In this document: positions 30,001 to 33,000 of the stretch, piece after piece
How the letters are laid out: each line of letters starts with the position of its first letter
Position numbering within the stretch: position 1 is the first letter of the stretch
DNA from: a virus
Taxonomy: Duplodnaviria; Heunggongvirae; Uroviricota; Caudoviricetes
Virus record (IMG/VR): IMGVR_UViG_2718218322_000002
Strand: one strand, 5' to 3'
Length of the DNA: 64,000 nt
Program-made: the position numbers

Positions 30001-33000
30001 CGATACACACCGGGGTTTACCGCGTAAACGGAGCGCGGCGTTCTCCCCTCATGGTCGCCCGTCCGGTGCGATGGTGGAAGAAACTGGAATCTGTTCAATA
30101 AAAAAACTGCCGTGTTGGAGTCACAGCAGTAATGTACTGATTGGGTAGAAGATTATTATTGTTATGCTTTATTTTTATTCTATATGGCTGATTATTTCAA
30201 TTCGGAATTAATACAGCTAATGTCTGTGAGTTTTTATAAATTCAGCAATATAAAGAAATAGTTATATGAACAGCCATCGCAGAGCATACTGTGTATCATT
30301 CTTTTTTATAGTCAACTGACGGGCATATTTTATGTCTGCTGCCAGCTCCCGGCGGCAAGATTCAATGACCCACGCAGAAAAATTTTCTGAACCTTTCTGG
30401 TCAAGAGCGATGTTAATTTGTTCAATCATCTGGTTTGGAAATCGGATGTTGCGGGTTGTTGTTCTGCGGGGCCGGTTTTTCGATGACATTTTCTTTCCTC
30501 TGGTGACAAGCTATATGGCGAGGATTTTACATGGCTGTGCTTCGTACGTTACCGGGCAGAATCAAAACTCTGAACACCCGGCGGGTGAATATTCTGAAGG
30601 GTGAACAGCGTCGTGTCAGTGGCAGTGCACGTGTTTCCCTCAAGCGTCATATCTGGCTCAGGGATGCCGGGCAGTGCTGTCACTGTGGTCGTGTGGTTGA
30701 CCTCTGTGACAGTGAACTCGATCACCGAATTGCACTTCAGTTCGGTGGTGGTAATGAGGAGACGAATCTCTGGACGCTCTGTACCGAATGCCATCGACAA
30801 AAGTCTGCTCGTGAAGCGGCGGGTGGTATGCCGGACCCGACGCTGCCGGAGGTGTCCGGAGGTCATGGCAGGGCAGACGATATCATCGGACTGTGACCCG
30901 CCCCGGGGGGGGGGGATCATCCGGCGAAAAAAACGATCGCCCCGGACACCGCCCCCCGTCTCATGCAGAGAAAAAATTCCTGTTTCAGGCCAGTTAACAT
31001 GTTAACTGGCTGCCCGGGCATTTTTTCGGTTTTTATCTTTATTATTCAGTTTGTTGTGCGAAAAAAATGTTAACTGGCTTTTTCAGCAAATGTTAACCAG
31101 GCAGCAGTTAACATTTGCGGCATGAGACGCCGGGAAAAATGGGCTGAACCATACCCGGCTGAGTGCGTTATGGACCCGGGAGGAGGCTGTGCTGACAACG
31201 CAAAAACGAAAATTTGCGCTGGCGCTCATGTCCGGGAAAAACAAAACAGCGTCAGCCATTGCCGCCGGTTATTCGGCGAAGACCGCCAGGGTTAAAGGCT
31301 CGCAGCTGGCAAAAGATCCGGAGGTGCTCGCGTTTATAGCCCGTAAACAGTGCGAAACGGTGGAGGTGGATGAGGTTCCTGTTTACCGGCAGAAAAAATC
31401 AGAGCAGGAGGATAAACCCCGTCGCCGTGAGGTGGCTGCAATACCACAGCCGGACGAAAACAATCCGGAGATGCCTCCGCCCGCGGTGATATCTCATGGT
31501 ATTGAATATATGGAGGATGGTCTTCCCGATCCGGTGAAAGCTATGGGGCAGATCCTGGTGGAAAACCTGATAATTGACCCGAAACTGGCACTGGATGCGG
31601 CCTGGCGACTGGCGCAGTTCACACACCATAAAAAAGGCGATGCCGGTAAAAAATCGGCAAAAGGTGATGCCGCGAAAAAAGCGGCTAACCGTTTTGCGGT
31701 GCCACCACCTCCCCGGCTGGTGGTGAATAACCAGAATGAGGAAAGCGGATGATACCTGTATGGAGCACGGCATGTCCGGACTGGGCAGAGCGCCTGAAAA
31801 AGGGGCTGTCGATTATTCCGGCTCCGATTTATCCGGACCAGGCTGCACATGCACTGGCGATTTTTAAACAACTGCGAATTGTGGATGCACCGGGTAGCCC
31901 GACATTCGGGGAGTCCTGTGCACCGTGGGTGTTTGACCTGGTGGCGGCCCTGTTTGGCTCCTACGATGCGCAGACCGGTGTTCGCCATATCAAGGAAGTG
32001 TTTATCCTTATCCCCAAGAAAAACAGTAAGTCCACGCTGGCCGCGGGGATCATGATGACGGCGCTGTTACTGAACTGGCGGCAGGCGGCGGGCTACACCA
32101 TTCTGGCCCCGACCGTGGAGGTGGCGGCTAACGCCTTCAACCCTGCCAGGGATATGGTACGACGGGACGATGATCTGGATGACCTCTGTCAGGTGCAGAC
32201 ACATATCCGGACCATCACCCATCGGGTGACGGACACCACCCTGAAGGTGGTGGCAGCCGATCCGAATACGGTGTCCGGTATCAAGTCCGTGGGGACACTG
32301 ATTGATGAACTGTGGCTGTTTGGCAAGCAGTACAAAGCGGAAGACATGCTACGTGAAGCCATCGGCGGGCTGGCTTCACGTCCGGAAGGGTTTGTGGTGT
32401 ACACAACCACCCAGTCGAATGAACCGCCTGCCGGGGTGTTCAGGCAGAAACTGCAGTACGCCCGGGATGTCCGTGACGGCAAAATTCATGATCCGCACTT
32501 TCTGCCGGTGATTTTTGAGCATCCTCCTGAAATGGTGGAAAGCGGGGCTCACCTGCTGATGGAAAACCTCGCCATGGTTAACCCGAATCTCGGTTATTCG
32601 GTGGATGAGGCCTTTCTGTACCGGGAGTACCGTAAAGCCCGGGAGGCTGGTGAGGAAGCATTTCGTGGCTTCATGTCAAAACACGCCAATGTGGAAATCG
32701 GTCTTGCCCTGCGTTCTGACCGCTGGGCGGGCGCGGATTTCTGGGAGCAGCAGGGCAGGCGCGTCAGCCTGGACGATATCCTGCAGCGCGCTGATGTGGT
32801 GACGGTGGGGATTGACGGCGGGGGCCTGGATGATCTGCTGGGAATGTACGTGACTGGCCGTGACAGGGAAACCCGCGAATGGCTGGGCTGGGGCCATGCC
32901 TGGGTGCATGAAACCGCGGTGGTCAGACGGAAGAGTGAGGTATCCCGGTTTCAGGATTTTGTGGCCTGTGGAGACATGACGATTGTCCGTCGGGTCGGGG

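Follow-up and report, generated by a model that had tools for sequence, protein, structure and literature searches.

In phage lambda, the small-terminase protein gpNu1 binds cosB (R3-I1-R2-R1), a region between the nicking site and the small-terminase gene that is required for the start of packaging and in which helper phages differ from satellites with a common cosN; phage-inducible chromosomal islands (PICIs) have cosN and cosQ in common with their helper and differ in cosB (PMC6739421). The small terminase (TerS) of HK97, gp1, which differs in family and fold from the TerS considered here, reads a single 15-bp site at +15..+29 with the DNA threaded through its channel (PMC11331095). G1P of SPP1/SF6 recognizes several short boxes instead of one site, and how TerS proteins of the helix-turn-helix (HTH) type recognize viral DNA is still elusive and controversial (review PMC9611059). 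Here, we analyzed an array of GTTAAC-centred repeats in a 64,000-nt stretch of viral DNA (IMG/VR record IMGVR_UViG_2718218322_000002; the whole stretch is called the window, and all coordinates refer to it). The window is a Pankowvirus-type lambdoid prophage of Escherichia coli O157:H7 with the gene order HNH endonuclease, gap, terS (Pfam Terminase_2), and large-terminase gene terL, and the array lies in the gap. Judged from comparison of related loci, the array is likely to be a cosB-like TerS recognition region of an HK97-type cos site, i.e., one that depends on an HNH endonuclease and yields 3' overhangs. Such an element is of the kind expected for its position, but it is undescribed for this very common phage group.

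Direct reading and a repeat search confirmed that the array is real. The elements of the region are listed below; numbers with a plus sign are counted from the predicted left end of virion DNA at 30960, which puts the array at +30 to +160 and the start of terS at +230.

30905..30915: poly-G tract, 11 G, upstream of the predicted cut; at least 6 G at the same place in every class
30944..30959, plus strand: cos core GGACAC/CGCCCCCCGT; the pattern GGACACCGCNCCCCNNCTCAT is found in all Enterobacteriaceae and Acinetobacter relatives
30960..30988, plus strand: predicted first left-end bases CTCATGCAGAGAAAAAATTCC..., with an A6 tract at +12..+17; conserved segment
30989..31010: sites 1 and 2, palindrome with two inverted TGTTAAC cores (+34, +41); direct reading and repeat search
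31011..31064: T-rich spacer with T-tracts phased at about 9-10 bp (T6 at +62, T5 at +71); comparison of classes
31065..31078, plus strand: site 3, AAATGTTAACTGGC (+109), a direct copy of the right palindrome arm; repeat search
31086..31118: sites 4 and 5, GCAAATGTTAAC-N9-GTTAACATTTGC (+132, +148); repeat search

The palindrome, GCCAGTTAACA/TGTTAACTGGC, is perfect over 22 bp (30989-31010) and is centred at +40/41. Site 3 repeats the word of the palindrome arms, ATGTTAACTGGC (31067-31078), 68 bp further on. The inverted pair that follows carries the words AAATGTTAAC and GTTAACATTT and was described in the sequence-only reading with a 9-nt spacer; the spacer was as described, but the arms are slightly longer, with 12 nt each (GCAAATGTTAAC at 31086-31097 and GTTAACATTTGC at 31107-31118) and 100% complementarity. 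Altogether, the array contains five copies of (A)(A/C)ATGTTAAC, of which the first and last point leftward and the three between them rightward. Five of the six copies of ATGTTAAC in the 64-kb window, and 5 of its 16 copies of GTTAAC, fall within 30993-31114; given the background rate, five or more TGTTAAC in 136 bp have a Poisson probability of about 1e-12.

Upstream of the array, we found a conserved block, poly-G ... GGACAC/CGCCCCCCGT/CTCAT..AAAAAATTCC, that is homologous to a mapped cos site. The deposited linear genomes of the Acinetobacter phages fEg-Aba01, fLi-Aba02, and fLi-Aba03 start with CGCACGCACAAAAAAAATTCCC... and end with ...GGACAC-CGCCCCCCAT, the last 10 nt of which are annotated as a 3' cohesive end. 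These ends were mapped by PhageTerm, confirmed by restriction gels of heated and annealed DNA, and called HK97-type by the authors (PMC7354433). The window aligns base for base with the Acinetobacter cos (GGACAC/CGCCCCCCGT/CTCATGCAGAGAAAAAATTCC), with TTCC at +18..+21 in both; fEg-Aba01 also has the G-run, GGACACCGCCCCCC, and, at the same offset as in the window, AAAAAATTCC, together with an upstream HNH gene and a homologous TerS N-terminus. Because the core is homologous to this experimentally mapped site, we place the cut at 30950-30959, with CGCCCCCCGT as the predicted 10-nt 3' cohesive end and the virion left end from 30960. The array would accordingly be cosB-like, and not cosN or pac, since the cleavage site placed by homology lies about 40 bp upstream of it. 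fEg-Aba01 resembles the window further in that short repeats start at about +30 from its mapped left end, but these are three direct copies of AAGTTAAA, 12 bp apart and directly before terS, with more copies inside terS and neither a palindrome nor a long spacer.

When viral contigs were scanned for GGACACCGCNCCCCNNCTCAT, 101 loci matched; pooled with the loci already collected, they represent 67 distinct versions of the block with its downstream DNA, each before a TerS homologue. The cos-core pattern in genome contigs gave 23 chance matches in GC-rich genomes and one real locus (L092), and a search of genome contigs for related loci using a single TerS gave no confirmed match. Salmonella phage FSL SP-016, whose TerS is 47% identical to that of the window by tblastn and 55% by global alignment, shares at the DNA level only the block upstream of the array (poly-G ... 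CGATCGCCC.GGACACCGCCCCCC.TCTCAT.CGCAGAAAAAAT). The poly-G tract has 7-11 G among close relatives and 6 G in Acinetobacter, and its complementarity to the C-run in the predicted cohesive end is imperfect. In PPompW prophages, the IS110-family element ISEc20 is inserted near this tract, and the match to our query begins at 30911. When phage records with ends in this region were sought, those from E. coli were all prophage-derived or arbitrarily opened, and only the Acinetobacter phages gave mapped ends; a full-text literature search for the predicted cohesive-end sequences found only unrelated primers.

Compared with HK97, the locus has the same gene order (HNH, cos, terS, terL), a 10-nt 3' cohesive end (here by homology), and a candidate TerS site just inside the left end that is preceded or accompanied by an A-tract (PMC11331095); it differs in having five sites over 130 bp and a TerS with an SF6-like HTH. 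We considered the conserved A-tract segment as an HK97 TerS site, and rejected it on finding that the cos and left-end sequence of HK97 is unrelated. The likeness to lambda lies in the layout: short repeats in mixed orientation stand between the cut (placed here by homology) and terS, five sites running from +34 to +148 before a terS at +230, and a bend may separate the proximal from the distal sites. Unlike lambda, where gpNu1 has a winged HTH, the ends are 12-nt 5' overhangs, and no HNH gene is present, this locus has a PF03592 TerS with an SF6-type HTH, a predicted 10-nt 3' overhang, and an HNH gene next door. Phased T-tracts take the place of the site for integration host factor (IHF; I1 in lambda), and no match to the IHF consensus WATCAANNNNTTR with at most one mismatch occurred within 30960-31190. 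The spacer sequence is only 44-62% identical between classes, yet T-tracts stand at +61/62, +70/71 (and +79) in the window and in loci L130, L087, and L085 alike; the spacer is thus probably intrinsically bent, with a conserved bend from the phased T-tracts.

We then compared the array among relatives. In 54 distinct close variants, it was almost invariant, the only common polymorphisms being 30990 C/G and 31075 T/A, and the 3' end of the HNH gene and the poly-G tract varied. Since such close variants say little about function, more distant relatives were sought. The first 30 bp from the predicted left end are 80-97% identical to the window in relatives with differing arrays. In related phages, among which the sequence-only reading had proposed a motif search, arrays occur at kept positions, but the word differs by lineage. 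The site positions are as follows.

Window: +34 (leftward), +41 (rightward), +109 (rightward), +132 (rightward), +148 (leftward)
L130: 34, 41, 108, 131, 147
L085: 34, 41, 109, 133, 149
L222: 34, 41, 109, 133, 143, 159
L087: 33, 40, 108, 132, 142, 158

Sites in L130 and L085 are thus within 1 bp of those in the window, and in L222 and L087 an insertion of exactly 10 bp, one helical turn, adds a further site. At these positions the word is replaced at all sites together, being TGTTAAC, TGTTTAY, or, in satellite-like elements, GTTACAC:

Window: palindrome arms and site 3, ATGTTAACTGGC
L085: arms and site 3, ATGTTTATACCC; distal pair AAATGTTTAC and GTAAACATTT, N9 between, at +133/+149
L087: arms and site 3, ATGTTAACCACC
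L224: TGTTTATA, six to seven copies, mostly direct; no distal pair

The position of the palindrome holds the lineage-specific word, TATAAACATGTTTATA in L085 and GGTGGTTAACATGTTAACCACC in L087, and L224 and L222 likewise have palindromes there. The Acinetobacter word is AAGTTAAA. In short-type relatives (the FSL SP-016 class, L147, L151, and L092; L219-L221; and L225), the palindrome is equally far from the core and overlaps the terS start codon (ATG-TTA-ACA), and additional copies, e.g., AATGTTTATACCCCAGCAGTAAACA, lie within the coding region for the TerS linker. Repeat words within this linker region (L002 at about 2700-2730; L219-L221 and L225 at about 1200-1260; L088 and L116) impose repeats on the peptide, such as NVYTPAVNT and two NVNTP, and KVT repeats in satellite-like elements.

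The satellite-like elements include loci with a PICI-type AlpA (L226) or a primase-type replication gene (L088, L089), and L088 and L089 also have a capsid gene downstream of terS. L088, L089, L116, and L226 have the phage cleavage core, a different word, and a TerS variant with W for S at residue 38. Their word, AAAGTTACAC, recurs both before their own terS and within it. Through the core to about +18, L226 and phage locus L087 are nearly identical; beyond that point, the arrays and TerS proteins are unrelated. In that L088 and L226 keep the phage cleavage core and carry a different array beside their own TerS variant, they resemble the satellites that redirect packaging, PICIs through Rpp and cosB and Staphylococcus aureus pathogenicity islands (SaPIs) through TerS-S and pac. 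They would differ in that specificity would come from a satellite-encoded TerS homologue and its own array within an HNH-type cos.

The genes around the array are as follows.

30262-30489, minus strand: DUF3950 (YlcI/YnfO) gene, PF13132; possibly ribbon-helix-helix
30531..30896, plus strand: HNH endonuclease gene, PF01844 (E 1.4e-6); RefSeq relatives annotated as HNH endonuclease
31189-31752, plus strand: terS, small terminase, PF03592 Terminase_2 (E 1.3e-8); GTG start
31749..33410, plus strand: terL, large terminase (ATPase and nuclease), PF03354 and PF20441

The profile matches bear out the labels HNH and terS given in the sequence-only reading, and the order PF01844, PF03592, PF03354 plus PF20441 is that of an HK97-type module. 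The HNH endonuclease is a packaging accessory typical of HK97-type cos phages, and its gene stands directly upstream of cos in most phage-type relatives. terS is the only gene that accompanies the array in every case. Its product scored 36.0 bits against PF03592 (cut-off 26.1), with coverage of residues 2-57 only.

To this N-terminal region AlphaFold2 (AF2) assigned a four-helix HTH DNA-binding domain (residues 1-56; predicted local distance difference test score (pLDDT) 93-96), with helix 2 at residues 19-25 and helix 3 at 33-41. The best Foldseek match of this domain was the DNA-binding domain of SF6 G1P (4zc3; TM 0.84, root-mean-square deviation 1.6 A, 30% identity), followed by 2cmp, 3zqq, and the TerS of PaP3/NV1; HK97 TerS structures were not among the matches. 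Residues 57-113 are predicted to be a disordered linker, and the C-terminal helices (115-165) had a pLDDT of 55-90; overall predicted TM-score (pTM) was 0.32, and structural matches were confined to the N-terminal domain. The protein therefore has the Pfam family and N-terminal DNA-binding fold of SPP1/SF6 G1P. SPP1 and SF6 are headful packagers, SPP1 with pac boxes (pacL and pacR) on both sides of the cut; unlike SPP1, the present locus appears to be of the cos type, and copies of its motif were found only downstream of the predicted cut.

The TerS residues that vary between classes (30, 32, 35, 36, and 39) are at the start of helix 3 and within it, and they change together with the word. In L083, residues 1-60 of TerS are 98% identical to the window and the motif is the same, the rest of TerS being 78% identical. 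In L085, TerL is 97% identical to the window, but both the recognition helix of TerS and the motif are changed. A prediction was written down before new loci were fetched: K-T-A-R should go with TGTTAAC/T sites and K-S-A-R with TGTTTAY sites. It held in six of the seven new loci, and one was mixed (numbers are TTAA:TTTA sites):

KTAR, L219: 4:1
KTAR, L220: 5:0
KTAR, L221: 3:1
KTAR, L222: 6:0
KSAR, L223: 0:3
KSAR, L224: 0:7-8
KSAR, L225: 2:2

A pooled automated count with one representative per helix variant gave 31:6 versus 4:18 (Fisher p 1e-6, without phylogenetic correction). Long-array and short-array architectures both show the T/S switch, indicating at least two switches.

These observations suggest the following sequence of events. 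During late growth, TerS, presumed to be oligomeric, would read the five sites through its N-terminal SF6/SPP1-type HTH domains and so pick out the phage's own DNA for packaging. The spacer with phased T-tracts would let the DNA bend, so that one TerS assembly could hold both the palindrome (+30..+51) and the three distal sites (+106..+159). This nucleoprotein complex would bring TerL and the HNH protein to the conserved core, some 40 bp upstream, where their staggered cut would leave the 10-nt 3' end CGCCCCCCGT (30950-30959), and packaging would then proceed rightwards into terS. In this scheme, the core would be a catalytic target common to relatives and satellite-like elements, and the array a lineage-specific address label. 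The proposal of the sequence-only reading that the repeats are terminase recognition sites (cos/pac-like) is thus supported as far as TerS sites are concerned, by their location next to the predicted cut, their conserved positions, the turnover of the motif, its co-variation with the recognition helix, and the constant company of terS; the array is probably not a cleavage site or pac.

Several points weigh against a cosB-like role. The position of the cut is transferred from an Acinetobacter phage, and our literature search found no description of the array or of the cos site of Shiga toxin (Stx)-type phages, and no binding, footprint, or packaging experiment for the group. The correlation between T/S and the base rests on few independent switches, L225 is mixed (2:2), the KTAR loci L219 and L221 carry one GTAAACA each, and two TTTA-type heptamers inside the window's own terS fit no pattern. 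The HNH protein also diverges between classes (78.5% identity in L085), such that identity alone cannot single out TerS, and a requirement for an RNA hairpin would likewise maintain inverted repeats. Finally, binding by HTH domains of SF6/SPP1-type TerS is weak or non-specific in vitro (review PMC9611059).

The hairpin alternative holds that the array is an RNA element of the late transcript, whose hairpins (palindrome and inverted pair) or alternative pairings between the five complementary words terminate or attenuate transcription or control translation of terS. Both inverted repeats do fold as hairpins in the predicted RNA, with a z-score of -2.16 against shuffles, although this value is modest and expected of any palindrome. 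A weak terminator-like element, CCGGGCATTTTTTCGG plus TTTTTATC, is present at 31014-31029, but the T-run is set apart from the 22-bp palindrome. If the two arms of a hairpin changed in compensation, this would mimic concerted change of the motif; yet site 3, a lone direct copy, also changes in concert, and the repeats of L224, the Acinetobacter phages, and the satellite-like elements are for the most part direct and unable to form hairpins. In addition, short-type relatives carry sites inside the terS coding region, and an RNA element leaves the co-variation with the protein helix unexplained. On balance, we regard an RNA element as improbable. An Rfam search of 30700-31400 found no family at gathering or permissive thresholds. 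As an intrinsic terminator, the region offered only a weak candidate with a 5-bp stem, and counts were near shuffle expectation; for a prophage small RNA (sRNA; the minus strand carries CACAACAAAC), nothing was found in support.

Equally improbable, in our estimate, is that the sites are read not by TerS but by the HNH protein, TerL, another phage factor, or a host DNA-bending protein. The HNH protein loosely tracks the motif classes, with 94% identity to the window in L083, 78.5% in L085, and 65-69% in L087 and L002, and the weak binding of SF6-type TerS domains in vitro (PMC9611059) would also fit another reader. However, the HNH protein is small and has no recognized sequence-specific DNA-binding domain, and satellite-like L088 and L226 have their own array beside their own terS, with no HNH or terL gene called in the flanking 1-1.5 kb or so. 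TerL of L085 remains 97% identical despite the differing motif. Classes with different words coexist within one host species, E. coli, which makes a host factor an unlikely reader. The prediction from the TerS helix, made a priori, largely held.

The palindromes could instead be operators for a transcription factor, and the sequence-only reading had named the adjacent divergent ribbon-helix-helix gene, i.e., the DUF3950 gene at 30262-30489. Palindromes are typical of operators, and the motifs themselves make up a sigma-70-like match on the minus strand (31096..31067): sites 4 and 3 supply the hexamer pair TTAACA-18-TAACAT, which points leftwards to cos. Promoter-like matches in the region were, however, no more numerous than in shuffles. 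The DUF3950 gene is not adjacent to the array but 500 bp away, with the whole HNH gene between, and tblastn found no homologue of it in about 1-2.5 kb upstream of the array in L085, L219-L221, L224, L225, and L002, all of which keep the array. No GTTAAC occurs near the promoter region of the DUF3950 gene itself, and the array lies within the late operon, where, to our knowledge, no operator is expected in lambdoid phages. An operator role, for the divergent gene in particular, is therefore unsupported and very improbable. Least probable of all, by a little, is that the array has no function and is left over from a duplication or insertion by which the terS start was displaced, possibly together with a small hydrophobic open reading frame (ORF) at 30999-31076: ATGTTAAC resembles the ATG-TTA-ACA start of terS in short-type relatives, terS of the FSL SP-016 type starts with ATGTTAACA exactly at the position of the right palindrome arm, and the ORF (MLTGCPGIFSVFIFIIQFVVRKKC) spans site 2 to site 3, but diverged lineages keep the positions to within 1 bp even as the words are exchanged together, and the array hardly varies among the 54 close variants in which its flanks do.

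This ORF of 25 codons has its ATG at the centre of the palindrome and its TAA inside site 3. We considered it as a toxin or moron gene and rejected it: it stops after 14 codons in L085 and is disrupted by indels of 1-2 nt in several near-identical loci (L024, L177, L149, and L203). It is probably a by-product of the T-rich spacer.

The 1.6 kb surrounding the array is 100% identical to E. coli O157:H7 strain 4276 and shows 96-98% identity with many Stx1a-, Stx2a-, and Stx2c-converting prophages as well as with phages 2851, 1717, YYZ-2008, and BP-4795 (genus Pankowvirus). The array region by itself was found in 1244 of the 5426 complete E. coli genomes searched, as many as 7 times in one genome, and the whole 1.6-kb region in 1247. 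The 1.6-kb query matched 4175 of the 5426, mostly through partial matches to the DUF3950 gene, which is far more widespread than the packaging module.

A 1-nt deletion (GGG to GG) at about 34474 divides the fused prohead-protease/major-capsid gene of the window (33474-35410) into two overlapping ORFs; the gene is intact (1938 nt) in phages Stx2a_F349 and 1717. Because of this frameshift, the window prophage may depend on packaging in trans: it probably cannot make its own heads and could be packaged only by siblings of the same TerS/array class. Elsewhere in the prophage, Rfam matched the STnc100 sRNA (24266-24477), isrK and the C4 antisense RNA with its a1/b1 target (17493-17691), the lambda cIII thermoregulator (7305-7363, minus strand), and two tRNA genes (22626-22698 and 22782-22855). 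Three near-identical ALIL pseudoknots, the frameshift element of the IS3 family (5941-6057, 10269-10385, and 20689-20805, the last on the minus strand), indicate three copies of one insertion sequence in the window.

Beyond the assignment of the array to TerS, the comparisons raise the more tentative possibility of a modular packaging signal throughout this large family of HNH-dependent cos phages and satellite-like elements, in which a common cleavage core is combined with a fast-evolving heptamer label read by the HTH of TerS. Thr32 or Ser32, with its neighbours, might retune base 5 of the label (TGTTAAC to TGTTTAY), and pairs of label and helix might define packaging-identity groups. The Thr32/Ser32 change against A/T at base 5 is one specific, directly testable swap, and with five sites at fixed positions and several natural variants of motif and helix, the locus is a clean natural system. 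If the proposal is true, it would provide a natural recognition code for this TerS family, in which the mode of DNA recognition is disputed, and the packaging-identity groups would decide which co-resident prophages (up to 7 copies of the same class per E. coli genome), defective siblings, and satellites are co-packaged or excluded. The element is common and medically relevant, being present in Stx1- and Stx2-converting and related prophages, and the array could determine which prophages, defective siblings, and satellites co-package and spread toxin genes.

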